Origin: a virus
Length of the DNA: 40,786 nucleotides
IMG/VR virus record: IMGVR_UViG_3300031965_000073
Coordinates: 1-40,786 of that record
Reading direction: 5' to 3' (one strand)
In this document: positions 2,119 to 38,361 of the stretch, piece after piece
How positions within the stretch are numbered: position 1 is the first letter of the stretch
How the letters are laid out: each line of letters starts with the position of its first letter
Position numbers and translations under genes: made by a program
The notes under the pieces: model-generated
What the model saw: the letters and a program-made list of their open reading frames with translations, nothing else
Database searches by the model: none
Told to the model about the DNA's origin: nothing

Positions 2119-4263
2119 CTAAGCCATATAACCTTGTAATCTTTCAATGCCGTGGTCGCCCGCGAATAGCATGTCACCCTTGCCCGCTAGACGTTCGGCC
2201 CCTGCATCGTCGAGCACCACCTGTGAGTCAGTGATCTTCGCTGTCTTGAACACCACCTTTGTAGGGAAGTTCGCTTTGATAGTTCCCTTAATGACATCAA
2301 CTGATGGTCGCTGTGTCGCGATGATAACGTGTATGCCCGCGGCTCGTGCCTTCTGTGCGAGCAAGAGAATCGAGCGCTCAATTTCTGCTGAAATATCTGT
2401 CTCCTCAATTCTTGTTTCCTCCTCACCTTTGCGCGGGCCTTGTGCGAATACCTTGCCGGTGAGTATGGTCTTCTTCTCGATATGTCGTGCGGCAATTAGA
2501 TCGCCGAACTCATCAATGACCACAAACTTTGTCGGCATGTTCTTCATCTCTGCACTGCTTCGCTTCTTTGCTTTCGCCATCTGCTTGTACCGGTGATTCA
2601 TTTCATCGACCAATGCCCGCAACGATGTATGAATCGGCATGATGTCACACTGGTACTCGACCACATTCGCATCGTCCTGATGCTGTGAGAGTTCCACCAT
2701 TTTCGGGTCATATAAATGAATCTGCACCCCACTGATTCGAGAGAGTTGTGTAATCACACTCGAAAGGAATACCGACTTGCCGCTACCGGAAGCACCGGCG
2801 ACAAGCATGTGCGGTGCATTCCTGATGTCGAACCGTCGTGCATTCCCCATCACGTCCTCACCTATTGCAAGGTCAAAGCCGTTACCGGAAGGCAATGCAG
2901 GGAAGGTGCGCTCGAATCGTGGCACCTCGAATCCAATGAGCGAGCTATCGGGAATCGGTGCAAGCACCCGCACTCCTGAAACTCCAAGCACCTGAGAAAT
3001 ATCATCGGCAAAGTTTCGTACCTTGCTCATCTTGATACCGATGCTAGGTGCGAACCGGTATAGGTCTACCGTTGCCCCATGCACCAATGAATCGAACGAA
3101 AGCATCATGCCGTGTTCCATCATCTTCGTTTGTATTTTTTCTTCGTTTTTCATTTTTGAATAATCTATATTTTTAGCAGCTACAAATTGCTCCTCAACTG
3201 CCTTCATGAGTTTCCTCATGTTGCCCGCACTTTGTATCTCTCTTTTAAGTAACTCTGTGATGTTATCGACTTTGTGTTTCTTCATCAGTGCCGCGGTTTC
3301 CTCCGGCATATCGAGCCGGTGAATGTATGCGACGATAGCAACTTCATTGTCGAACATTGCATCGACGTTCGGTACGAATATCGCCTCACCATTGAGCGCT
3401 CGCGTGATGTCCTCATAGAATCGAAAGAAGAAGTCGAAAAACAAATCATTGTCTTTGAACACCATCTCGTACTCACGAACCTGTGGCGAGCCGTCACTAT
3501 TCTTTGTGTACTTCGCTTCCTGAAACGTCACGCTGTACGGCTCCTCACCATGCTTTGCATACGTCAGTAGGTAGTAAATCACCGCCTGCAGAATCTTTGC
3601 ACCATCAATTTTCTCCGGATTGCTGTATGCGTAGCACGTTTTATAGTCAACGATTTTCAGCTTCCCATCGACACGGTCAGTCCGGTCAATGTACCCTTTG
3701 AGTGCCACCGGTAGACGTAGCTCGCGCCCGCGCCACTCGACATCAATAATCTCTTTGATTTCATCCTCGACTGATACCAGAGTTTCTTTGTTGTATGGCA
3801 TCTGCTTCACATACGAGTTGTAGGTGAACGTGAATACCTCAAAGAGTTTTTGCTTGTTCGGTATCGTCTTCGAGTAATTGATGAACCCGTCATTGTGCTT
3901 TTCGATATAGTCCATGCCTGAGGTAAGGCCGTACTCGATTGCCTCTGCCTCGTTTGTTGGTATGAGGGTATCACTGCCACCGTAGTACACTTCCATCGCA
4001 TGATGAAAGGCATTTCCGAGAACCCCTGATACATTGCGGGCCGTATCGAACCGGTCACCATTCATGTACTCAATCTTGAATAGAATCGGATTCGTCGAGA
4101 ACCTTCGCATCGAACTCGCACTGTAGTGCGGAACCGGAAAGTCAGTTTTTATCGGCGTCGATGGCTGCCTCTCCTTCAACTGTGCTTTGATCGCCTTCGG
4201 CATTTGTAGCCCCATGCGTACTTTGGTCTTCCGCACCGACTTTGTCTTGTTTGGTTTTTTCAT
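2119..4263 (-). CDS. Fusion protein: N-terminal PD-(D/E)XK (RecB/Cas4-like) nuclease domain plus C-terminal FtsK/SpoIIIE-type DNA translocase ATPase. It has no TM segments and no gamma domain.
   Basis: Nuclease motifs: GNAFHHAME, VEDEIKE, GYIDRTDRVDGKLKIVDYKT, QAVIYY. FtsK motifs: LVAGASGSGKSV (Walker A), FVVIDEFGDL (Walker B), IIATQRPSVDVIKGTIKANFPTKVVFKT, GKGDMLF. The start is uncertain: ATGs at 4263, 4215 and 4203 all overlap the RecT 3' end. Confidence 0.8.
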   Translation of the reverse strand: MKKPNKTKSVRKTKVRMGLQMPKAIKAQLKERQPSTPIKTDFPVPHYSASSMRRFSTNPILFKIEYMNGDRFDTARNVSGVLGNAFHHAMEVYYGGSDTLIPTNEAEAIEYGLTSGMDYIEKHNDGFINYSKTIPNKQKLFEVFTFTYNSYVKQMPYNKETLVSVEDEIKEIIDVEWRGRELRLPVALKGYIDRTDRVDGKLKIVDYKTCYAYSNPEKIDGAKILQAVIYYLLTYAKHGEEPYSVTFQEAKYTKNSDGSPQVREYEMVFKDNDLFFDFFFRFYEDITRALNGEAIFVPNVDAMFDNEVAIVAYIHRLDMPEETAALMKKHKVDNITELLKREIQSAGNMRKLMKAVEEQFVAAKNIDYSKMKNEEKIQTKMMEHGMMLSFDSLVHGATVDLYRFAPSIGIKMSKVRNFADDISQVLGVSGVRVLAPIPDSSLIGFEVPRFERTFPALPSGNGFDLAIGEDVMGNARRFDIRNAPHMLVAGASGSGKSVFLSSVITQLSRISGVQIHLYDPKMVELSQHQDDANVVEYQCDIMPIHTSLRALVDEMNHRYKQMAKAKKRSSAEMKNMPTKFVVIDEFGDLIAARHIEKKTILTGKVFAQGPRKGEEETRIEETDISAEIERSILLLAQKARAAGIHVIIATQRPSVDVIKGTIKANFPTKVVFKTAKITDSQVVLDDAGAERLAGKGDMLFAGDHGIERLQGYMA

Positions 4264-5059
4264 CTTTCAAAAGATTACCCATGGCAATACCGCTCGACTC
4301 TTTCTGTGCGGCTTCCATACGGTCACTGATAATTGAATCTCGATTGTCCTCCGCGATTGCATTCACGATGGTTTCATTCTTCGGTACGAGCTTCGCCACT
4401 TGCTTCAATACGGTCTTCTTCCACATCCAAAGTTGCGGGTCATTGTTTTCATTCCATGGTGAAAAGTCGCCTCCGAAACTCTTGCTGAACTTCTTACCCA
4501 TTGCCAATATATCTTTAGCACTCATCACCTCACTCACCTCGCCACCGGAACCCAATCGCACAATCACATACGCACCGATTGCCTCACCTCTATCACTAAA
4601 GTGGTCAGGCCGGTGTGTGATTTTCTTATTCTCAACTTCAAAGAAGTCGTTTTTGCGAACCACATCAGCGACGATCTCGATTGCTCCGGCTCGATAAAAC
4701 AAAGTCACCAGACCTTGATAGCCTAGTTGGAACTGTGCTTCGAGCACTCCTTTATTCTTGTATGGCAGTACATACGCTTCACCACTCACACCCGACGGCA
4801 TGAATCCAAGCTGTGCCATGGTCATGAAACTATTTATGACCGACGGCGCTGTGCAGTTCAGCAGTTCAGGAAGTCGCTGCGTTGCCGCGACCACCGCACT
4901 GAGGAATGCCATTGCTTTCTTGTCGTCACCAAAATAGTTTTGTATCTGCCTCATGTAGTTCTTTGCAATGACATCTTTCAATATCAACTCGCTCCCGAAC
5001 TTCGTAGGAATAACCACCGGCTTTGACGCTGTGGGTTTGTTTTGCATGTCGTTACTCAT
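4142..5059 (-). CDS. recT: RecT-family single-strand annealing recombinase
   Basis: RecT-like core: APSVINSFMTMAQLGFMPSGVSGEAYVLPYKNKG...QFQLGYQGLVTLFYRAG...PWNENNDPQLWMWKKTVLKQVAKLVP. The C-terminal tail is acidic and looks disordered. Confidence 0.8.
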   Translation of the reverse strand: MSNDMQNKPTASKPVVIPTKFGSELILKDVIAKNYMRQIQNYFGDDKKAMAFLSAVVAATQRLPELLNCTAPSVINSFMTMAQLGFMPSGVSGEAYVLPYKNKGVLEAQFQLGYQGLVTLFYRAGAIEIVADVVRKNDFFEVENKKITHRPDHFSDRGEAIGAYVIVRLGSGGEVSEVMSAKDILAMGKKFSKSFGGDFSPWNENNDPQLWMWKKTVLKQVAKLVPKNETIVNAIAEDNRDSIISDRMEAAQKESSGIAMGNLLKDEKTKQDKVGAEDQSTHGATNAEGDQSTVEGEAAIDADKN

Positions 5060-19363: not shown

Positions 19364-22273
19364 TTATTCTAGCATTGTTTTATCCTTCTGTTCACTCTCC
19401 AACTGGTGACTTTCCTTGCGGGTGAATAGGGTTACTTTCTCGATTATCGAAGTGAGGAATATCGCTGTTTTTCCCACTATAACGCTCCCCTGCTGATGAA
19501 TGTACGCAAAGACGTCTTCGAGGCTAATCGACTCTGTGAGGGTGCGCCCTGCTTGTTTTAGGACGGTATCTACCAAAGTCACAACCTCGTCAAACGTGCG
19601 CGTGAAGCTCCTCGTGATGGTATCTACGGGTGTGACCACATCAGTGAGCACCTTGCCTATCGAGCGCAGTATGGAATCAACTACCGTCACTGTCTCTGTG
19701 AGCGTTCGGGAACCCTGCTTCAATACCGTGTCTACGAGGGTCACAGTTTCCGTGAGCATCTTCATGCCTTGCTTTAGTAGCGTATCAACAAGGGCCACAG
19801 CCTCACTCAAAGTTCGGCTCGTACTCTTGAGAACCGTATCTACCAAAGTAACTACATCAGTGAAGGTACGGCTCACCTGCCGAATAATAGTATCGACGAT
19901 TGTGATTGTTTCCTCAAATACAGCAATCGCCACTTTTGCTCCTGTAAAAGTATCGACCATCGTGACCACATCTGAAAGGGTGCGTGCGCATTGTTTTAAA
20001 ACACTATCGACTGCCGTGACTGTTTCAGTGAGCATACGCGATGGTTCACGAATAATTGAATCAACAAGTGTGACCACATCTGTCAAAGTTTTTGAACCTT
20101 GCTTTAGTAGCGTATCTACGATGGTCACGATGTCTGTGAGAGTGCGCGAGCATTGCTTCAAAACGGTATCAACAATAGTAATAGCATCAGCAAAAGTGCG
20201 CGCCGTTTGCTTTTCCACATTATCAACAATCGTAGCGACATCAGTAAGTACGCGCGAAGACCCTTTGAGAATGGTATCGACTATAGTCACGACTTCTGCA
20301 TACTCTTCTTCGTAATCTGTACCGCCACCGCCTGTTGAGGTATACGTGACATACACAGAGTACTTGCGGTCTTCATCTGTACCGTCACTCGGATTTGTTG
20401 GAGTAGCGAAACTGTTTGTTGTGTCATTAAGCCCCTGACCTGTAGTACCAGAATCATAATAGAGCGTCCACGATATGTCGCTACTTACAACCATTATATA
20501 AAACTCGTTGCCGTTAGTGATTTGTGGTGAAGATGAATAGGTACACGTTAATGTTTGATTACCGTTACTTCCAGTTCCAGATTGAGGACTTGTACCATTC
20601 GTGACGATATTTTTTGAACTGTTTGATACGACTATTTTTATTCTTGCCTTCGTACCAACAAGGGTTAAGATTGCACTACCTGAGGTAATATCACCATTTT
20701 CGCTTGCAGTGAACTTTGAGCCAAGTAACCGGTTTGAACCTATTGAGGTCTGACTCGAGCCACCTTGCGAAGTAAATCCAAGAGTGGGGTCAATCACGAC
20801 AGGGTACTGAGCTTCATCGAGAAAATCTTGCGGCACTACCACTTGCAAAATGCCGTTCTCTATATCGAGATTCAGTTCACCCCACACTTCCCGATTGTCG
20901 GCGTCCTTAATCTTTGGTCTGTATATGTGAAGAAACTTGCCATTTTTATAGTCCTTCGCATGCTCCTTCGATGATGCGCCTGATTTTTCTTCATGATACA
21001 CCGCATAGCTCCCTACTACATTTTCAGGCCGAAAACAACCGTCGTCTATCTCTTTTTGCGTGAGTTCAGGCTGATAGTAAAAAACCAATCCTTTAGTTTC
21101 AATACTAAAATCAACGATATTCGAAGTCGGTTTTTTATTGAAGATAACTTCTATTTCAAGACCCCCCTTAGAACTTTCTGCGGGTTCGAGCAATTCAGAA
21201 TCCTCAATATCATTGCGTACAGCGTCTAGAGTCCATTCACGAGAAACATGCACAGTCTCTACCCCATCGAGTATGGTTTCTTCTTCTTTTGTGAAAGCTC
21301 CTGCACTGAAAGTCAAACCTATATTTTGAGCAATCCTTTCTGCAAGTGATTCCTCGAACTGAGACACATCTATATCCTGCAACTCACGCAAACCACCAAA
21401 GTAATCCAAACGCTCCGGTGAAACATTGTATATGCTGTAATGCTCGAGTGGCGTTTTCTCGACATTCACAAACCAAGCAGAACTGCTACTGCCATTAAAA
21501 GAGTTTAAATAACTGATTCCAAAGAACTTTTTCTTTTTCCCATCAACCAAAATAAACAAGTCGGTAGTAGATTCATCTTTCAATACTTCGATACCATACT
21601 GTGCACATGTTTCTACTACGGCGTTCGCAACAGCGCTTTCGTAACGTTCTTGCCCGCCACGCGGGTATATCAACGACTGTAGAATGACTCCTTTGCCGAC
21701 AGTAAGCCCTCCAATGAGGTCAAAATCATTTTTGAAAAGACGTATTACATTATAGTTTTCAATCTCTGCTGTAATGGCAAAATTGCTCACAGCACTTTTA
21801 CCGGCAAACAAAGCAATCGCGTCTTTATAATCCTGTGAAAACAATAGCACTTCTTCTGGTTTTACGAATCGATGCATTTCAGAAAACGCAGCAATGCGAG
21901 TATGCGCCATTCTATCCTTTACAAATCGAAGCACAGTAGGGCTAACTGTTTCCTCATTCTTCACTTCACCTAGTTCGTATATGTGAGTCTCAACATCATC
22001 GGTCTTGTACTTTATAACCTCTCCTTCAATTTCAACAGTTGCACCGTCATACTCTGCTGAACGAATCGAAAAATTGACCTCATTATCCCACTTCATTATC
22101 TTCGCCTGAGGTTTGAAGTCGGTTTGTTTGCTGTCTCCAATTTCAAGCTGTAATCGTTCTTTCGGGTCTTCCACAACATCTCGTATGAGTGTTTCACCTT
22201 CCACAGTGAACTTGCCACCGATCTCTGTCGGGATTATCTCTGGTAACTTAGTTTTGATTTTAGTATCAGGCAT
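19364..22273 (-). CDS. Large virion-associated protein (969 aa) with a C-terminal array of 14 tandem 18-aa repeats
   Basis: The track ORF starts on GTG at 22306. The first ATG is at 22273 (MPDTKIKTKL...). The repeats have the consensus D-V-V-T-I-V-D-T-V-L-K-Q-G-S-R-T-L-T. A beta-rich Ser/Thr/Asn central region lies upstream of them. Confidence 0.8.
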   Translation of the reverse strand: MPDTKIKTKLPEIIPTEIGGKFTVEGETLIRDVVEDPKERLQLEIGDSKQTDFKPQAKIMKWDNEVNFSIRSAEYDGATVEIEGEVIKYKTDDVETHIYELGEVKNEETVSPTVLRFVKDRMAHTRIAAFSEMHRFVKPEEVLLFSQDYKDAIALFAGKSAVSNFAITAEIENYNVIRLFKNDFDLIGGLTVGKGVILQSLIYPRGGQERYESAVANAVVETCAQYGIEVLKDESTTDLFILVDGKKKKFFGISYLNSFNGSSSSAWFVNVEKTPLEHYSIYNVSPERLDYFGGLRELQDIDVSQFEESLAERIAQNIGLTFSAGAFTKEEETILDGVETVHVSREWTLDAVRNDIEDSELLEPAESSKGGLEIEVIFNKKPTSNIVDFSIETKGLVFYYQPELTQKEIDDGCFRPENVVGSYAVYHEEKSGASSKEHAKDYKNGKFLHIYRPKIKDADNREVWGELNLDIENGILQVVVPQDFLDEAQYPVVIDPTLGFTSQGGSSQTSIGSNRLLGSKFTASENGDITSGSAILTLVGTKARIKIVVSNSSKNIVTNGTSPQSGTGSNGNQTLTCTYSSSPQITNGNEFYIMVVSSDISWTLYYDSGTTGQGLNDTTNSFATPTNPSDGTDEDRKYSVYVTYTSTGGGGTDYEEEYAEVVTIVDTILKGSSRVLTDVATIVDNVEKQTARTFADAITIVDTVLKQCSRTLTDIVTIVDTLLKQGSKTLTDVVTLVDSIIREPSRMLTETVTAVDSVLKQCARTLSDVVTMVDTFTGAKVAIAVFEETITIVDTIIRQVSRTFTDVVTLVDTVLKSTSRTLSEAVALVDTLLKQGMKMLTETVTLVDTVLKQGSRTLTETVTVVDSILRSIGKVLTDVVTPVDTITRSFTRTFDEVVTLVDTVLKQAGRTLTESISLEDVFAYIHQQGSVIVGKTAIFLTSIIEKVTLFTRKESHQLESEQKDKTMLE
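19535..20296 (-). repeat. In-frame tandem repeat array, 14 units of 54 nt (one unit is 60 nt)
   Basis: Units read EVVTIVDTILKGSSRVLT / DVATIVDNVEKQTARTFA / DAITIVDTVLKQCSRTLT / DIVTIVDTLLKQGSKTLT ... EVVTLVDTVLKQAGRTLT. The antisense track ORF 19500..20315 is itself periodic. Confidence 0.85.
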
Positions 22274-22276
22274 TTT

Positions 22277-22306
22277 AAAAAAAGAGTGGGCACATTTTAT
22301 GCCCAC
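22277..22306 (-). terminator. Intrinsic terminator/attenuator hairpin immediately upstream of the 969-aa gene start
   Basis: The minus strand reads GTGGGCA-TAAAATG-TGCCCAC-TC-TTTTTTT-AAA-ATG. The loop contains the TAA stop of the upstream gene. Confidence 0.55.
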
Positions 22307-33915: not shown

Positions 33916-34259
33916 TGGACTAGAAGGGAATTGAACCCTTGTCCGGTAATGGTCTTCAACGATTTCTACGAGATATATGCGAGAGTTTCAGTGCCGCCCA
34001 CTGTTCGGGTAATCTCCACGATCACCGAATGCTTCAAACCTATCTCCACCAGTGGCCCTTTATATAACAACAAGCAAAGCGACGACCACGAACCTATTTG
34101 CTTGCCGACCTTACGCGTATTGTGGTTCCTGTAGGAACGCTGCGTATGGTGATGGTATAGAAGTTTTTGCAACTATGCCTTGCCACTCTTTTAAGAATGT
34201 GTGGCCGTTTCTATCTCGCCTCGTATCGAACGGTATCACCGTCGAAGCCTGACTAGCCC
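33916..34259 (-). ncRNA. ssrA: Full-length one-piece tmRNA (344 nt, CCA not encoded)
   Basis: The 5' end is GGGCTAGTCAGGCTTCGACGG and the 3' end is CCGGACAAGGGTTCAATTCCCTTCTAGTCCA. The acceptor stem GGGCTAG/CTAGTCC carries a G3:U70 pair. The T arm is AAGGG-TTCAATT-CCCTT. A tag ORF begins at nt 90. Confidence 0.85.
34111..34170 (-). other. tmRNA tag reading frame: AKTSIPSPYAAFLQEPQYA followed by a stop
   Basis: ATAGTT-GCA AAA ACT TCT ATA CCA TCA CCA TAC GCA GCG TTC CTA CAG GAA CCA CAA TAC GCG TAA. The GCA resume codon sits at the same distance from the 5' end (nt 90) as in E. coli tmRNA. Confidence 0.6.
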
Positions 34260-36067: not shown

Positions 36068-36805
36068 TTATTTTTTACAATACAACGTCTTGCATGGCGG
36101 AAACCAAGATGCGGGCCACGATGCTGTACCGGCGTAATCGTTCGGCGGCATGACGTCCTTAAAGGCATCTTTCAGTTGATACAGCACCTTTCGGAACCGT
36201 TCTAAATCAGGGTCTACATCGAAGCTCCACTCGAAAGTAAGTTTGTTGATGCGATCTAGGATAGCCCGATTTGAGGCAATTTGCTCCAAGATAGGCATTT
36301 CCGTACCCTCTATGTCCATTTTGATGTTCAGTGGCCCTACCACTGCGCCTAGGGCATCCAGTACGTTCACACACGGTACTGTGGTGCTCTGCCCGCCTTG
36401 CCATGGCCGTTCGATGCTATTGCGCCATACATTGCCGTGAGCCGTGTTCTGATGCAGTGTCGCGGTCTTGCGCTCATCTGCCACTACTGCCGCCTTGTGT
36501 AGCTCGTAGCGACTGTGGTCATGCATACGCATGTTCAGGCTCAATACCTCGAAGTTTTCAGGGTCAGGCTCGTATGCAATCACTTTCGCTGCGCCCTTAT
36601 GCACCGCCCACGAACTGAACCCGCCCACATTTGCCCCAAAGTCAAACCATGTCTCACCGGCCTCCACAGTGAAACGTACAGGCCGGAATCGCTCATACCC
36701 TTTATCGACCACCACTTCATCAATACTTTTCTTGTCGCTCGTGCCTTCGCGAATGAAGAATGTGATGTCCTTCACGCGGTACTCCTTCAAGTTATTTTGG
36801 CTCAT
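36068..36805 (-). CDS. FkbM-family SAM-dependent methyltransferase
   Basis: WFDFGANVGGFSSWAVHKGAAKVIAYEPDPENF is the SAM-binding motif of the FkbM type. LNIKMDIEGTEMPILE matches the conserved ...K.D.EG.E..+L block. Confidence 0.75.
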   Translation of the reverse strand: MSQNNLKEYRVKDITFFIREGTSDKKSIDEVVVDKGYERFRPVRFTVEAGETWFDFGANVGGFSSWAVHKGAAKVIAYEPDPENFEVLSLNMRMHDHSRYELHKAAVVADERKTATLHQNTAHGNVWRNSIERPWQGGQSTTVPCVNVLDALGAVVGPLNIKMDIEGTEMPILEQIASNRAILDRINKLTFEWSFDVDPDLERFRKVLYQLKDAFKDVMPPNDYAGTASWPASWFPPCKTLYCKK

Positions 36806-37613
36806 TTGATTTCACGCGCTTTCGCTCGCGCTGCGTTTTAATGTTTCTAATACGAGCAATCTCATCATCGACGGTAAGACACTCCCACATGCCACGTAGC
36901 GAGTAGAACACTGCCGTGAACCGATACCCCTCATCGGAAAGCAACTTGAATGGTGTCACTCCATGCAAAATCTCTTGCCCGTCGAAAAGCAAAATCGAAT
37001 TGTCGGCAATCTCTAGCCCCATATCGTACTCCGGTAAGGAAAGATGCCCGCCCTCACAGTCGTGTTTGAAAGCGACCATGCATGAGAACACCTTCTTGAA
37101 GTTACCGGTATCGAAGTGATATTTGAGTGGATTGTTTTTGTTGATGATGCCGGAAGTGAATGGCGTGTTTGGAATCACCCACTGATCTTCTTTCATGTTT
37201 TCGCGCAATGTCTCACTGTGCTTTTGAAAGACCTCCGGTGCGCGTTGCAAGTAAATGCCCGCAATCTTTTGACCGAGTTCCACGATAGCAGCATGTGCCT
37301 CAGGGTCTTCGGTAGAAAGTGATGTCGCACTGCAGAAGTCCTTACGCATTGTTACCCGCGGCGCAAAGCCAAAGATGCGCGAAACTGTTTTCAGGCCCGC
37401 GGTGCGCTCTGTCTTCTGATACTTGATTTTCTTGAATGCCTCTTTGTACGGTGTAGTATCAAACGGCAAGTGGTCATACACCACCTTCACTTCACCATCG
37501 TGCATCAGTGTCACAGGGTCTTTCACGAGCGTCGTGAAGTCACTCACATTTGCACCGCGCAACTTGTAATCCTTATAGTCAAGTTCGCGTAGTTTAGCTT
37601 CGATTATTTTCAT
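36792..37613 (-). CDS. 2OG-Fe(II) dioxygenase of TET/JBP-like type
   Basis: HxDxxN appears in PLKYHFDTGNF. GGHLSLPEYDMGLEIADNSILLFDGQEILHGVTP supplies the distal His, and RFTAVFYS the 2OG-binding Arg. The spacing parallels the Naegleria Tet PHKDNLD...GYLEL...GDVLFFKGNEYKHVV...RIGLVYF. The track start at 37622 is GTG and the first ATG is at 37613. Confidence 0.6.
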   Translation of the reverse strand: MKIIEAKLRELDYKDYKLRGANVSDFTTLVKDPVTLMHDGEVKVVYDHLPFDTTPYKEAFKKIKYQKTERTAGLKTVSRIFGFAPRVTMRKDFCSATSLSTEDPEAHAAIVELGQKIAGIYLQRAPEVFQKHSETLRENMKEDQWVIPNTPFTSGIINKNNPLKYHFDTGNFKKVFSCMVAFKHDCEGGHLSLPEYDMGLEIADNSILLFDGQEILHGVTPFKLLSDEGYRFTAVFYSLRGMWECLTVDDEIARIRNIKTQRERKRVKSNEPK

Positions 37614-38361
37614 AGTATTCACGTAGTTTAATGACGGCCTCTGTGTTGCTTTCTACTCCATGCTCCTCCATCACAGTCGCCAAAAACTCGAGCATATCTT
37701 CGTACTCAGCCGTCGGGAAGTACAGCACGATTTGCTTGATGCTTGCGTTGTCGTAAATCTCTTTCGCATCCTTCACCCGATTGCGATCTACCTCCTCACC
37801 TTTTTGTGGCCCGCGAGCGCGCACATCTGCCATATCGTAGCGCTCAATGAGTGTTTCCAAGCCGGTAGAGTATGCTGTCTCGACGTTGTACATGCCTAAA
37901 TCGAGGCCACCGATAGAGCGTAGGTCACTCACGAGTGCATCTTCCACATAGAAACCGGCGCGGTCATTGTGTGAAAGTGCATACGACATCATGCCCGCTT
38001 CCTTCGATTCGTAGGTGACGGTCTTCCACTTCTTTGTCTCAGGGTCGAGCATTTTCTGCAATTCCCCATTGAGGTAGACAGTCCATACTCCATCATTTTC
38101 TTTGAACTCAACAAGCGATACCCACACTTTTTTGAATGTCTCGTACCCCTCTGCAATAAGCTCATGCATAATCAGCAATCGCATGTTGCCTCCGAGCACC
38201 ACTTTGAAACCATCGTCGTGTGTAATCAAAAGCGGGGTATGCTGTCCGAGCTTCCGCATTTGCTCCTTCAAACGGTCTTTCCCTTTATCGTCAATCGAGC
38301 GCGGGTTCTTTTTCCAAGATACCAAGTCGCCGATTGATTCTGTGACACGCTCTGCTGACAT
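37594..38361 (-). CDS. ParB/Srx N-terminal-domain protein with a C-terminal domain of unknown function
   Basis: DLVSWKKNPRSIDDKGKDRLKEQMRKLGQHTPLLITHDDGFKVVLGGNMRL fits the ParB-like nuclease-domain pattern (NPR...L..S....G...P+.....++.G..R). Confidence 0.65.
   Translation of the reverse strand: MSAERVTESIGDLVSWKKNPRSIDDKGKDRLKEQMRKLGQHTPLLITHDDGFKVVLGGNMRLLIMHELIAEGYETFKKVWVSLVEFKENDGVWTVYLNGELQKMLDPETKKWKTVTYESKEAGMMSYALSHNDRAGFYVEDALVSDLRSIGGLDLGMYNVETAYSTGLETLIERYDMADVRARGPQKGEEVDRNRVKDAKEIYDNASIKQIVLYFPTAEYEDMLEFLATVMEEHGVESNTEAVIKLREYYENNRS

Follow-up and report, generated by a model that had tools for sequence, protein, structure and literature searches.

A phage gene cassette joining a ParB-like protein, a TET/JBP-type dioxygenase and an FkbM-family methyltransferase: a candidate route to a hypermodified thymine

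Introduction

What chemistry might a bacteriophage carry out when it encodes, side by side, a ParB-like protein, a TET/JBP-type dioxygenase and an FkbM-type methyltransferase? This question is raised by a complete phage genome of 40.7 kb (the window, i.e., the whole stretch of 40,786 nucleotides analysed here), in which the three proteins are encoded by overlapping open reading frames that lie on the minus strand and run in the same direction. The trio may well constitute a post-replicative thymine hypermodification cassette, in which a ParB-activated TET enzyme would convert thymine to 5-hydroxymethyluracil (5hmU) and FkbM would convert the latter to 5-methoxymethyluracil. The initial annotation had described the enzyme combination as uncharacterised. 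This holds for the FkbM partner; the ParB and TET pair, on the other hand, has been characterised (O’Toole et al., PMC13229309). What is new here is thus the FkbM partner of a known pair, and not the module as a whole.

The Three-Gene Cassette and Its Genomic Context

Reading of the DNA bore out the coordinates of the three genes and both overlaps between them. The features of the locus are as follows.

37594-38361, minus strand: ParB-like gene, 255 amino acids
36792-37613, minus strand: TET/JBP gene, 273 amino acids from the ATG at 37613, which is the start of the public gene calls (P0108)
37622, minus strand: first GTG, an alternative start of the TET/JBP gene (open reading frame 36792-37622)
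36068-36805, minus strand: FkbM gene, 245 amino acids, ATG at 36805
37594-37613, minus strand: ParB/TET overlap of 20 nt, seen in the DNA (ParB stop codon 37596-37594, TET ATG 37613)
36792-36805, minus strand: TET/FkbM overlap of 14 nt, seen in the DNA (TET stop codon 36794-36792, FkbM ATG 36805)
31137..33294, minus strand: terminase genes downstream of the cassette (PHROG terminase matches; Pfam HTH)
32665-33294, minus strand: small terminase (the large terminase occupies 31137-32762)

The flanking reading frames are equally close, as the upstream one ends 1 nt short of the ParB ATG and the downstream one begins 3 nt past the FkbM stop codon; therefore, the tight packing is not peculiar to the trio. 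Since the terminase genes lie downstream, the cassette forms part of a ‘ParB-terminase’ locus, a concept introduced previously (PMC4738411).

Further modification genes were sought by Pfam searches of 30 further, mostly large, reading frames and by local HMM and phmmer searches of all reading frames. In agreement with the initial annotation, these scans revealed no C5-methyltransferase and no glycosyltransferase in the genome, and likewise no thymidylate-synthase-like enzyme, kinase or amino-acid:DNA transferase. The PF00145 profile (C5-cytosine DNA methylase) matched none of the reading frames scanned with Pfam.

The TET/JBP Dioxygenase

The second protein of the cassette is predicted from its sequence to be an Fe(II)/2-oxoglutarate enzyme of the TET/JBP family (5-methylpyrimidine dioxygenase, 5mYOX). 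It matches PF12851 over residues 97-241 with 49.6 bits (gathering score 34.9), which places it in a nucleic-acid family, and not with PhyH, prolyl hydroxylases or AlkB. Alignment located the following elements.

37101..37121, minus strand: YHFDTGN, with the HxD iron ligands H166 and D168
36951..36971, minus strand: ILHGVTP, with the distal iron-binding histidine H217
36900..36926, minus strand: YRFTAVFYS, with R231, the presumed 2-oxoglutarate-binding arginine
36795..36878, minus strand: basic, conserved C-terminal extension of 28 residues, following the conserved W243-x-C245 (LTVDDEIARIRNIKTQRERKR...)

The HxD, distal His and Arg motifs recognised in the initial annotation proved to be invariant (H166, D168, H217 and R231) across 29 homologues, including a distant protein of phage MED4-184. 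Homologues of the enzyme form 980 clusters, and the best 120 of these 980 all bear PF12851. When the family profile was compared with PDB sequences, four distinct sequences were obtained at E<=1, three of them TET/JBP enzymes (CMD1 at E=0.01, NgTET1 and TET2), all of these matches being weak.

ParB-associated phage 5mYOXs expressed in E. coli yield 5hmU at about 0.5-1% on their own and at up to 25-35% together with the cognate ParB, although several of them are nearly inactive in this host (O’Toole et al., PNAS 2026, PMC13229309). One of them, 5mYOX176, requires ParB176 for activity in vitro on double-stranded DNA (PMC13229309). The window shares with the 5mYOX176/ParB176 systems an adjoining, co-oriented ParB that lacks a DNA-binding domain and consists of a nucleotide-binding and a C-terminal domain. 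Also in common are a dioxygenase of PF12851 with the HxD...H/Arg arrangement, the lack of a neighbouring C5-methyltransferase, terminase genes alongside and, judged by description, probably a C-terminal extension of the dioxygenase. It differs from them in its tailoring enzyme, which is FkbM instead of a GATase, a P-loop kinase or an amino-acid:DNA transferase, and in the ParB protein, which, compared by published description, reads GGNMR at the GERR box and contains a beta insert of about 35 residues. With features compared by description, the window TET can probably be assigned to the ParB-dependent 5mYOX subclass (Clade C1 of O’Toole et al.). Its C-terminal extension resembles, as far as that paper’s description of the element goes, an extension reported there only in ParB-dependent 5mYOXs, and going by this description rather than by an alignment, the W243-x-C245 element that it follows may include the equivalent of residue C280 of 5mYOX176.

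Homology and genomic context thus point to hydroxylation of the thymine C5-methyl group as the probable activity of the window enzyme, and 5hmU is a much more likely product than 5hmC. A host-installed 5-methylcytosine could in principle be the substrate, with 5hmC and 5-methoxymethylcytosine as products; 5mYOX176 handles thymine and 5-methylcytosine comparably on XP12 DNA (PMC13229309), and a C5-methyltransferase gene lies between two ParB genes at the locus of one relative (L093/L094). This reading is very unlikely, however, as no C5-methyltransferase occurs in the window genome or at any of 83 loci carrying the FkbM subfamily (surveyed below), and the ParB-associated enzymes have been shown to make 5hmU. 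Moreover, among mined phage TET pathways, a C5-methyltransferase is found in about 6% and ParB in 27% (PMC13229309), which supersedes the earlier notion that phage TET loci pair the dioxygenase with a C5-methyltransferase and often with glycosyltransferases. Such a pathway, in which a C5-methyltransferase, a TET enzyme and a glycosyltransferase modify cytosine in a GpC-specific and ParB-independent manner, was described by Burke et al. (PNAS 2021, PMC8256090). It resembles the window in that a TET/JBP enzyme equips polymerised phage DNA with a hydroxymethyl handle, whereas the C5-cytosine methyltransferase required there is absent from the window genome.

The ParB-like Protein

The first protein of the cassette belongs to the ParB/Srx N-terminal domain superfamily (PF02195). 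By itself, it has no Pfam match; it matches PHROG 723 (E=7.6e-9) and, at its N-terminus, TIGR03764 (1.6e-5), and PF02195 is present in 8 of the 21 clusters of its homologues. The family profile retrieves M. xanthus ParB from the PDB (E=1.3e-6). For an AF2 model with a pLDDT of 83.8, the best Foldseek matches were N-domains of ParB, Noc and KorB only, over about 85 residues at an rmsd of 2.3; the first was 7bnr, M. xanthus ParB with CTP-gamma-S (rmsd 2.3, 84 columns). The architecture of the protein is summarised below.

Residues ~1-135: N-terminal nucleotide-binding-type domain with a lineage-specific beta insert at ~78-114 (roughly 35 residues)
Residues 140-182 and 183-209: helices and a disordered linker, respectively, followed by a conserved C-terminal helical domain (AF2 model)
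38299..38307, minus strand: ParB box NPR (N19-P20-R21), aligning with QPR (Q52/R54) of M. xanthus ParB
38179..38193, minus strand: GGNMR motif, aligning with the GERR box
37597..37740, minus strand: conserved C-terminal domain (IKQIVLYF...NTEAV...YEN; alignments, AF2 helices 217-253), presumed to serve in dimerisation

N19 and R21 of the ParB box are invariant across the aligned family. Where M. xanthus ParB has its catalytic glutamate for CTP hydrolysis (E93), the window protein has asparagine; the phosphate-binding arginine (R61) is retained. Because of this asparagine, nucleotide hydrolysis is probably outside the cycle of the window protein. Neither Foldseek nor Pfam aligned an HTH DNA-binding domain. 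A canonical segregation ParB, acting as a CTPase clamp, was consequently rejected on the basis of both the Glu-to-Asn change in the GERR box and the lack of an aligned HTH parS-binding domain.

The ParBs associated with 5mYOXs share their architecture with the window protein, and their nearest solved structures (M. xanthus and C. crescentus ParB) are also those of the latter (PMC13229309). The suggestion in the initial annotation that the ParB-like protein assists the dioxygenase has accordingly been demonstrated by experiment in these homologous systems; for the window enzyme, ParB dependence is an extrapolation because of the GGNMR motif and the unique insert.

The FkbM Methyltransferase

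The third protein is an FkbM-family SAM-dependent methyltransferase of a TET-linked, virus-restricted subfamily. It matches PF05050 (E=6.7e-10, 39.8 bits, cut-off 22.7), TIGR01444 (E=1.7e-18, 67.5 bits, cut-off 37.7) and PHROG 28597 (E=2e-40), its best PDB sequence match is the FkbM protein 2py6, and its AF2 model (pLDDT 94.7) has as its best BFVD match a phage FkbM methyltransferase (TM 0.80, E=6e-16). Profile, motif and structure matches thus uphold the identities first proposed for all three genes. The motifs of the methyltransferase are listed below.

36617..36646, minus strand: motif I FDFGANVGGF, the SAM-binding glycine-rich loop
36563-36574, minus strand: YEPD, source of acidic residues
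36416-36433, minus strand: NVWRNS
36299-36322, minus strand: subfamily signature KMDIEGTE
36212-36235, minus strand: subfamily signature FEWSFDVD
36092-36106, minus strand: WFPPC

Residues D55, G57, N59, G61 and F63 (DxGxNxGxF motif) are invariant, as are E79 and D81. The protein shares with FkbM of FK506 biosynthesis, NoeI and RfbT the family match (PF05050/TIGR01444; 2py6), SAM motif I and K-x-D-x-E-G-x-E. It differs from these known enzymes in that its subfamily is short (about 225-260 amino acids), virus-restricted and linked or fused to a DNA dioxygenase, and has invariant motifs of its own, namely TSDxK, NVWRNS, FEWSFDxD and WFPPC, the cysteine of the last, near the C-terminus, being only ~90% conserved.

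Members of the FkbM family methylate aliphatic hydroxyls, as in the 31-O-methylation carried out by FkbM and the methylation of sugar 2-O positions by NoeI and RfbT. We infer hydroxyl O-methylation for the window enzyme as well, its acceptor being deduced purely from genomic context. A role as a C5-cytosine DNA methyltransferase was rejected, as Pfam gave no PF00145 match. For the same reason, and because thymine already bears a methyl group, the order of methylation followed by oxidation, which the initial annotation had left open, is disfavoured. Within the PDB, Foldseek places the model beside generic Rossmann methyltransferases (TM 0.4-0.53), so the acceptor atom is not fixed by structure. 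Many of these neighbours are RNA C5-pyrimidine or N-methyltransferases, and Pfam indicates weak similarity to TRM5/TYW2 and FtsJ.

Distribution of the Gene Trio

Whether the trio recurs in other phage contigs, a survey proposed at the outset, was examined at 83 independent viral loci chosen solely for this FkbM subfamily. ParB, TET and FkbM were all present, adjacent and co-oriented in 79 of the 83, with a median intergenic gap of -4 nt at the 78 loci measured; this repetition makes the arrangement more than a matter of chance. Single polypeptides that fuse TET to FkbM, in both orders, account for at least 18 of the best 148 cluster representatives of this subfamily. Its distribution is essentially confined to viruses: it occurs on at least 218 IMG/VR contigs, whereas 185,579 species genomes yielded 2 short MAG contigs. 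The trio is also found in cultured phages, namely Prochlorococcus phages MED4-117, MED4-184 and P-HS2 and SAR11 phage HTVC112P.

A second set of 80 loci was selected by TET similarity, and ParB was present in 75 of them. Among 70 clustered genes from the slot beside the ParB-TET pair, 47 encode a TET-associated glycosyltransferase (TAGT) and 7 encode FkbM; other occupants of this slot are a P-loop kinase (5hmU kinase), an amino-acid:DNA transferase and a GATase. Where the chemistry of these slot enzymes is known, their target is the 5-hydroxymethyl group. As separate genes, FkbM and the glycosyltransferase exclude each other, the latter being present at 50 of the 80 TET-selected loci and, within ~6 kb of FkbM, at none of the 83 FkbM loci. 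In the TET tree, FkbM-associated enzymes are dispersed among glycosyltransferase-associated ones, and a close relative (L089, TET 70% identical) has a ParB-TET-TerS-TerL locus that lacks FkbM.

These data bear on the possibility that ParB and TET make 5hmU while FkbM methylates something else, such as a small molecule, another position in nucleic acid, or a protein, be it ParB, TET or one involved in packaging or belonging to the host. This would fit the generic structural neighbours of FkbM with their many RNA methyltransferases, the faint resemblance to TRM5/TYW2 and FtsJ, and the close relative just mentioned (L089), which does without FkbM. We nevertheless consider it unlikely, since the fusions in both orders, the strict adjacency in 79 of 83 loci and the mutual exclusion with the glycosyltransferase of the same slot are hard to explain unless TET and FkbM share a substrate or pathway.

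Rare TET-glycosyltransferase-FkbM, FkbM-glycosyltransferase and glycosyltransferase-FkbM fusions (P0233, P0267, P0323) indicate that FkbM and glycosylation can coexist, and in these proteins a sugar could accept the methyl group. That FkbM O-methylates a sugar placed on 5hmU by a glycosyltransferase, much as its family does on polysaccharides, is most improbable for the window, given that no glycosyltransferase was detected there or within ~6 kb of FkbM at the 83 loci.

Proposed Pathway and Its Product

Of the two orders initially considered, oxidation followed by O-methylation is best supported, because of the co-occurrence of the genes, their fusions, the interchange of slot enzymes and the virus-restricted distribution. 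The cassette would act on the phage’s own double-stranded DNA before packaging. In the first step, the dioxygenase would act on polymerised DNA and hydroxylate thymine at its C5-methyl group, yielding 5hmU. The adjacent ParB-like protein would activate this enzyme on double-stranded DNA, probably by forming a dimeric clamp or chaperone that keeps the dioxygenase there or sets its configuration. Finally, FkbM would transfer a methyl group from SAM to the oxygen of the new hydroxymethyl group, and 5-methoxymethyluracil would result. Such an ether would fix the base at the alcohol oxidation state, so that neither further rounds of oxidation to 5fU and 5caU nor attack by repair glycosylases could proceed. 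The non-canonical major-groove group would also hinder host restriction or CRISPR nucleases.

FkbM might instead act on a more oxidised product, for example by esterifying 5-carboxyuracil to 5-methoxycarbonyluracil. Characterised phage T-dioxygenases do reach 5fU and 5caU by iterative oxidation in vitro (PMC13229309), and a methyl ester would protect 5caU against excision. Nevertheless, 5hmU is the main product of 5mYOX176, with 5fU and 5caU below 3% each (PMC13229309), and the interchangeable slot enzymes (glycosyltransferase, kinase) all work on an alcohol. This alternative therefore appears quite unlikely. It also sits poorly with the FkbM family, whose members are, to our knowledge, hydroxyl and not carboxyl methyltransferases.

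Returning to O-methylation of 5hmU, we tentatively propose that the cassette writes an undescribed natural base, 5-methoxymethyluracil (O-methyl-5hmU), through a ParB-activated thymine dioxygenase and a dedicated, virus-restricted FkbM DNA O-methyltransferase. This modification would be widespread among marine phages, the cultured ones that infect Prochlorococcus and SAR11 among them. The searchable literature reports no natural 5-methoxymethyluracil and, as far as it was searched, describes no nucleic-acid substrate for the FkbM family. The idea of O-methylation itself is not new: O-methyltransferases including PF05050 have been listed, solely as co-occurring genes (O’Toole et al., PMC13229309), and possible ‘O-methylation’ was already raised by the same (NEB) authors in the bioRxiv version.

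If the proposal is true, no earlier case is known, as far as we found, of an FkbM-family enzyme that acts on DNA or of a SAM-dependent O-methylation on a substituent of a DNA base. The natural DNA bases would gain a member, and SAM-dependent O-methylation of 5hmU in DNA would be added to the known enzyme activities. A modified thymine would then occur in abundant ocean phages of Prochlorococcus and SAR11, which would matter for how phages evade restriction and CRISPR, for bias in virome sequencing and for the reading of nanopore signals. An enzyme that methylates DNA specifically at 5hmU could, moreover, serve as a labelling tool for mapping 5hmU.

Relation to Other 5hmU Pathways

If the proposal is true, the ParB-TET pair would be a ‘primer’ that supplies interchangeable capping enzymes, adding a sugar, a phosphate or amine, or a methyl group. 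Close parallels are the phage ParB-TET-TAGT cassettes and the kinetoplastid pathway to base J (JBP1/2 and a glucosyltransferase), in which a TET/JBP enzyme converts thymine to 5hmU and a transferase then caps the hydroxyl. In the phage cassettes, the glycosyltransferase takes exactly the slot of the window FkbM (L087/L088; the 47 slot genes mentioned above). The cap in these systems is the sugar of an NDP-sugar, whereas here it would be the methyl group of SAM, and the folds of FkbM and the glycosyltransferase are unrelated.

Another route employs a 5hmU kinase together with an aGPT-Pplase or an amino-acid:DNA transferase. It likewise derivatises 5hmU after replication, but there the hydroxyl is activated as a phosphate leaving group and replaced to give an amine, while O-methylation would be terminal and non-activating. 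In actinophages, this route is fed by ParB and TET, as in Rhodococcus phage Tonitrus, where gp1 is ParB, gp3 TET, gp6 aGPT-Pplase2 and gp7 the kinase.

Genome and gene layout

The window ends in an exact 127-nt direct repeat (1-127 = 40660-40786), and it is therefore a complete, circularly assembled phage genome with a unique length of 40,659 bp. A TET protein identical to the one encoded here occurs in two other public assemblies (Logan SRR9008719 and ENA ERZ27256875), on contigs 40.7-40.8 kb long. The minus strand carries almost all genes, among them the trio that the initial annotation had put forward as a DNA base-hypermodification module, whose open reading frames were found where it had placed them:

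37594-38361, minus strand: ParB-like ORF, 255 aa
36792-37622, minus strand: TET/JBP dioxygenase ORF, counted from the first GTG; the ATG at 37613, used in public gene calls, gives 273 aa
36068-36805, minus strand: FkbM methyltransferase ORF, 245 aa

Read directly in the DNA, the junctions are a 20-nt overlap between the ParB stop (37596-37594) and the TET ATG (37613), and a 14-nt overlap between the TET stop (36794-36792) and the FkbM ATG (36805). Since the flanking ORFs are packed equally tightly against the trio (1 nt upstream, 3 nt downstream), these overlaps represent ordinary phage compaction and nothing unique to the three genes. No fourth gene is kept with the trio, the flanking ORFs being conserved in close relatives only. 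A promoter and terminator scan found neither within the trio, and promoter-like sites were fewer than in shuffled sequence; the scan is uninformative.

Pfam and PHROG searches of about 40 further ORFs identified an FtsK/PD-(D/E)XK fusion, RecT, a RusA-like resolvase, a Mu-like head module (portal, protease, F protein), tail and lysis genes, and the small and large terminase subunits; they returned no C5-methyltransferase, glycosyltransferase, thymidylate-synthase homologue, kinase or amino-acid:DNA transferase. When the tailoring enzymes of relatives were compared with all six frames of the window in a local HMM/phmmer scan, FkbM alone matched. A PADLOC scan for defence systems gave nothing meaningful. 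Downstream of the trio, which stands at the end of the replication and recombination block, are some small ORFs, the genes for a tmRNA and a tRNA, and those for the terminase. This placement is that of the 'ParB-terminase locus', which the Aravind group proposed as a DNA-modification site coupled to packaging (PMC4738411). Against 50,697 phage records, neither megablast of the trio locus nor tblastn of the large terminase protein yielded a match, and thus neither a cultured relative nor a host can be assigned.

The dioxygenase and the ParB-like protein

The TET/JBP protein matches PF12851 with 49.6 bits (gathering score 34.9) and contains the YHFDTGN, ILHGVTP and YRFTAVFYS motifs, with H166, D168, H217 and R231 invariant in an alignment of 29 homologues. 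Only four distinct PDB sequences match its profile at E<=1; TET/JBP enzymes account for three of them (CMD1, NgTET1, TET2), all weak matches. Neither the Pfam search nor the PDB profile search returned the PhyH, prolyl hydroxylase or AlkB families, and the enzyme thus keeps the place that the initial annotation gave it, outside such non-nucleic-acid families.

Homologues of this protein in many actinophages, for instance those of cluster-B mycobacteriophages (e.g. NC_011044 887-1585), are labelled 'queuine tRNA-ribosyltransferase' in PHROG 6059 and RefSeq, and 'hypothetical', 'oxidoreductase' or 'Tet-like J-binding protein' in their GenBank versions. The queuine label on this family is probably a propagated mis-annotation.

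The ParB-like protein itself has no Pfam match, and it matches PHROG 723, 'ParB-like partition protein' (7.6e-9). PF02195 is found in 8 of its 21 homologue clusters, and the family profile retrieves Myxococcus xanthus ParB from the PDB (E=1.3e-6). Foldseek searches with its AF2 model (pLDDT 83.8) place M. xanthus ParB-CTP-gamma-S, Noc, the B. subtilis and C. crescentus ParB proteins and KorB at the top, with alignments covering the N-terminal ~85 residues only. The protein consists of an N-domain, two helices, a disordered linker (183-209) and a conserved C-terminal domain, and an HTH domain is absent. The QPR box reads NPR, the GERR box reads GGNMR (38179-38193, minus strand), a form common to the whole family, and the CTP-hydrolysing Glu of M. 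xanthus ParB is replaced by Asn here and by His in the most distant family members. Reading the C-terminal domain as a ribbon-helix-helix DNA-binding domain, suggested by a beta-alpha-alpha pattern seen by eye, is unsupported: matched by profile to PDB sequences and Pfam, it returned noise only.

These features were compared with the ParB-dependent phage thymine dioxygenases (5mYOX) described by O'Toole et al. (PNAS 2026; PMC13229309). The ParBs associated with those enzymes retain the nucleotide-binding and C-terminal domains, lack the DNA-binding domain and have M. xanthus and C. crescentus ParB as their closest solved structures, while the dioxygenases carry a C-terminal extension (PMC13229309). 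In E. coli, 5hmU reaches ~0.5-1% when such an enzyme acts alone and as much as 25-35% when the cognate ParB is present, and 5mYOX176 requires ParB176 on double-stranded DNA in vitro; in the mined phage pathways, C5-methyltransferase stands at ~6%, ParB at 27% and terminases at 19% (PMC13229309). The ParB-TET pair of the window agrees with this subclass in every sequence-level feature tested, the conserved 28-residue basic tail of its dioxygenase being a putative counterpart of the extension. The published ParBs are described as largely conserving the NTP residues, whereas the GERR Glu is replaced in the family of the window protein. A pathway acting instead on 5mC installed by the host is improbable; this genome encodes no C5-methyltransferase, and the subclass that the pair resembles was shown to make 5hmU.

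The FkbM methyltransferase

The third protein exceeds the cut-offs of both PF05050 (E=6.7e-10) and TIGR01444 (E=1.7e-18), and its closest PDB sequence match is 2py6, 'Methyltransferase FkbM'. The closest viral structure match to its AF2 model (pLDDT 94.7) is a phage FkbM methyltransferase (TM 0.80, E=6e-16). Against the PDB, Foldseek returned generic Rossmann methyltransferases only (TM 0.4-0.53); neighbours this generic do not identify the acceptor, and rival substrates are not separated by structure. The C-terminal cysteine of a WFPPC motif was considered as a mark of C5-pyrimidine methyltransferases and rejected: it is not invariant, and PF00145 is unmatched.

The protein belongs to a sharply bounded subfamily with invariant motifs of its own, comprising 85 clusters at E<=3e-31 with the next match at 6.6e-8, or 261 representatives at E<=1e-30 versus 88,209 in the wider superfamily. 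Among 185,579 species-representative genomes, it has only two matches, both on short MAG contigs. This near absence, and the virus restriction that it reveals, speaks against FkbM being a prophage 'moron' for methylating sugars on the host surface. That FkbM methylates some substrate other than the oxidised base is unlikely; the generic structural neighbours would allow it.

Association of FkbM with the ParB-TET pair

IMG/VR contigs were selected by FkbM similarity only (the best 80 of at least 218, plus three loci found earlier), and 79 of these 83 loci carry ParB, TET and FkbM adjacent and co-oriented. Of these 79, 70 have the gene order ParB-FkbM-TET and nine share that of the window, ParB-TET-FkbM, with a median gap between trio genes of -4 nt (78 loci measured). 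Additionally, 28 of the best 148 subfamily representatives are at least 300 aa long, and at least 18 of these 28 join TET and FkbM in a single polypeptide, in both domain orders. Examples are the database proteins P0288 (TET-FkbM; PF12851 5e-27 plus PF05050) and P0286 and P0261 (FkbM-TET). These fusions are known from database protein calls; a search of IMG/VR with P0288 for a fusion gene in DNA found only one distant TET without FkbM.

Further multi-domain fusions, likewise known from protein calls, occur among other database proteins (P0233, P0267, P0323, P0266), in the forms TET-glycosyltransferase-FkbM (715 aa), FkbM-glycosyltransferase, glycosyltransferase-FkbM and radical SAM-FkbM (779 aa). 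They hint that more elaborate methylated hypermodifications may exist.

Selection by TET similarity (the best 80 of 373 relatives) recovered ParB in 75 of 80 loci. The slot beside the pair, where tailoring enzymes stand, is most commonly filled by the TET-associated glycosyltransferase PF20691 (47 of 70 clustered slot genes), and by FkbM in seven loci. Other occupants are a P-loop kinase, the amino-acid:DNA transferase PF18724, GATase, an FAD oxidoreductase and, in one lineage, a C5-methyltransferase; Rhodococcus phage Tonitrus has ParB, TET, aGPT-Pplase2 and a kinase. The TET-associated glycosyltransferase is present in 50 of the 80 TET-selected versus none of the 83 FkbM-selected loci; as separate genes, FkbM and glycosyltransferase are mutually exclusive and do not co-occur. 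Methylation of a sugar on a glycosylated base, suggested by the rare TET-glycosyltransferase-FkbM fusions, is very improbable for the window, from which a glycosyltransferase is absent.

Among 164 TETs placed in a neighbour-joining tree, FkbM accompanies one large marine clade and at least five small groups that lie between glycosyltransferase-associated ones. In L089 (IMGVR_UViG_3300007074_000425), a close relative whose TET is 70% identical to that of the window phage and whose large terminase matches at E=1.5e-178, TerS-TerL come immediately after ParB-TET, and FkbM, the small ORFs and the tmRNA region are absent. This scattered distribution, together with the relative lacking FkbM, marks FkbM as an exchangeable add-on to a ParB-TET core.

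The trio is also present in cultured phages. Prochlorococcus phages MED4-117, MED4-184 and P-HS2 carry it in the order ParB-FkbM-TET-TerS-TerL, and in Pelagibacter phage HTVC112P (MN698246.1 6973-9195) it corresponds to gp17 (ParB-like), gp18 and gp19 (FkbM). HTVC112P gp18 matches the TET profile (E=5e-32), and its label 'DnaJ chaperone/SNF2 DNA repair' is, judged by sequence, a mis-annotation.

Proposed pathway

By analogy with characterised homologues, the ParB-like protein would activate the dioxygenase on double-stranded DNA, and thymine would be converted to 5hmU after replication. Since FkbM-family enzymes methylate aliphatic hydroxyls, and the slot partners of known chemistry all act on the same 5-hydroxymethyl hydroxyl as proposed for FkbM, this enzyme would be expected to move a methyl group from SAM onto the 5-hydroxymethyl oxygen, giving 5-methoxymethyluracil. 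Such a stable ether would end the stepwise oxidation to 5fU and 5caU, two bases that repair glycosylases excise (PMC13229309), and its methoxymethyl would introduce a non-canonical substituent into the major groove. The generic structural neighbours do not distinguish this ether from a methyl ester made by FkbM on 5caU; the hydroxyl preference of the family speaks for the ether, and we consider the ester unlikely, slightly more so than methylation of some other substrate. The ParB/TET half of the pathway is, taken alone, highly probable, and the full route through O-methylation to 5-methoxymethyluracil has about an even chance of being correct.

The initial annotation described the trio correctly, with gene identities, catalytic residues, ParB architecture and genomic coupling established here, and its idea that a DNA base is oxidised and then O-methylated is the best-supported reading. 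Its view of the module as new does not hold for the ParB-TET pair, which was characterised already, and co-occurrence with O-methyltransferases is already in print; there, 'O-methyltransferases' appear only as a bar-chart entry (PMC13229309). The literature search found no paper tying FkbM to TET, 5hmU or phage hypermodification, and no report of natural 5-methoxymethyluracil or any natural methoxymethyl pyrimidine. Titles and abstracts of papers naming the cultured trio-carrying phages hold nothing on DNA modification.

Other features of the genome

A full-length tmRNA gene (33913-34259, minus strand; Rfam RF00023, 75.2 bits versus a gathering score of 47, E=1.4e-27) separates the trio from the terminase genes, and its tag, predicted by ARAGORN as AKTSIPSPYAAFLQEPQYA*, is unusual. 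A tRNA gene lies at 33483-33558 (minus strand; Rfam 42.4 bits), to which ARAGORN assigns no identity, reading a four-base 'caca' anticodon. It is directly followed by a terminator-like hairpin (33480-33457), and a promoter-like site with 10/12 matches (33356-33327) is located just ahead of the small terminase gene.

An unusual recombination module, kept in the sister phage L171, is formed by a 714-aa ORF (2119-4263, minus strand), in which PD-(D/E)XK nuclease, FtsK-alpha and FtsK/SpoIIIE ATPase domains are fused, and a RecT gene (4142-5059, minus strand) that overlaps it by 122 nt. Finally, a 980-aa ORF (19364-22306, minus strand) between the head and tail modules contains five imperfect direct repeats of 32 nt (19551-20182) at spacings of 54-330 nt, which probably encode a repeated peptide motif.
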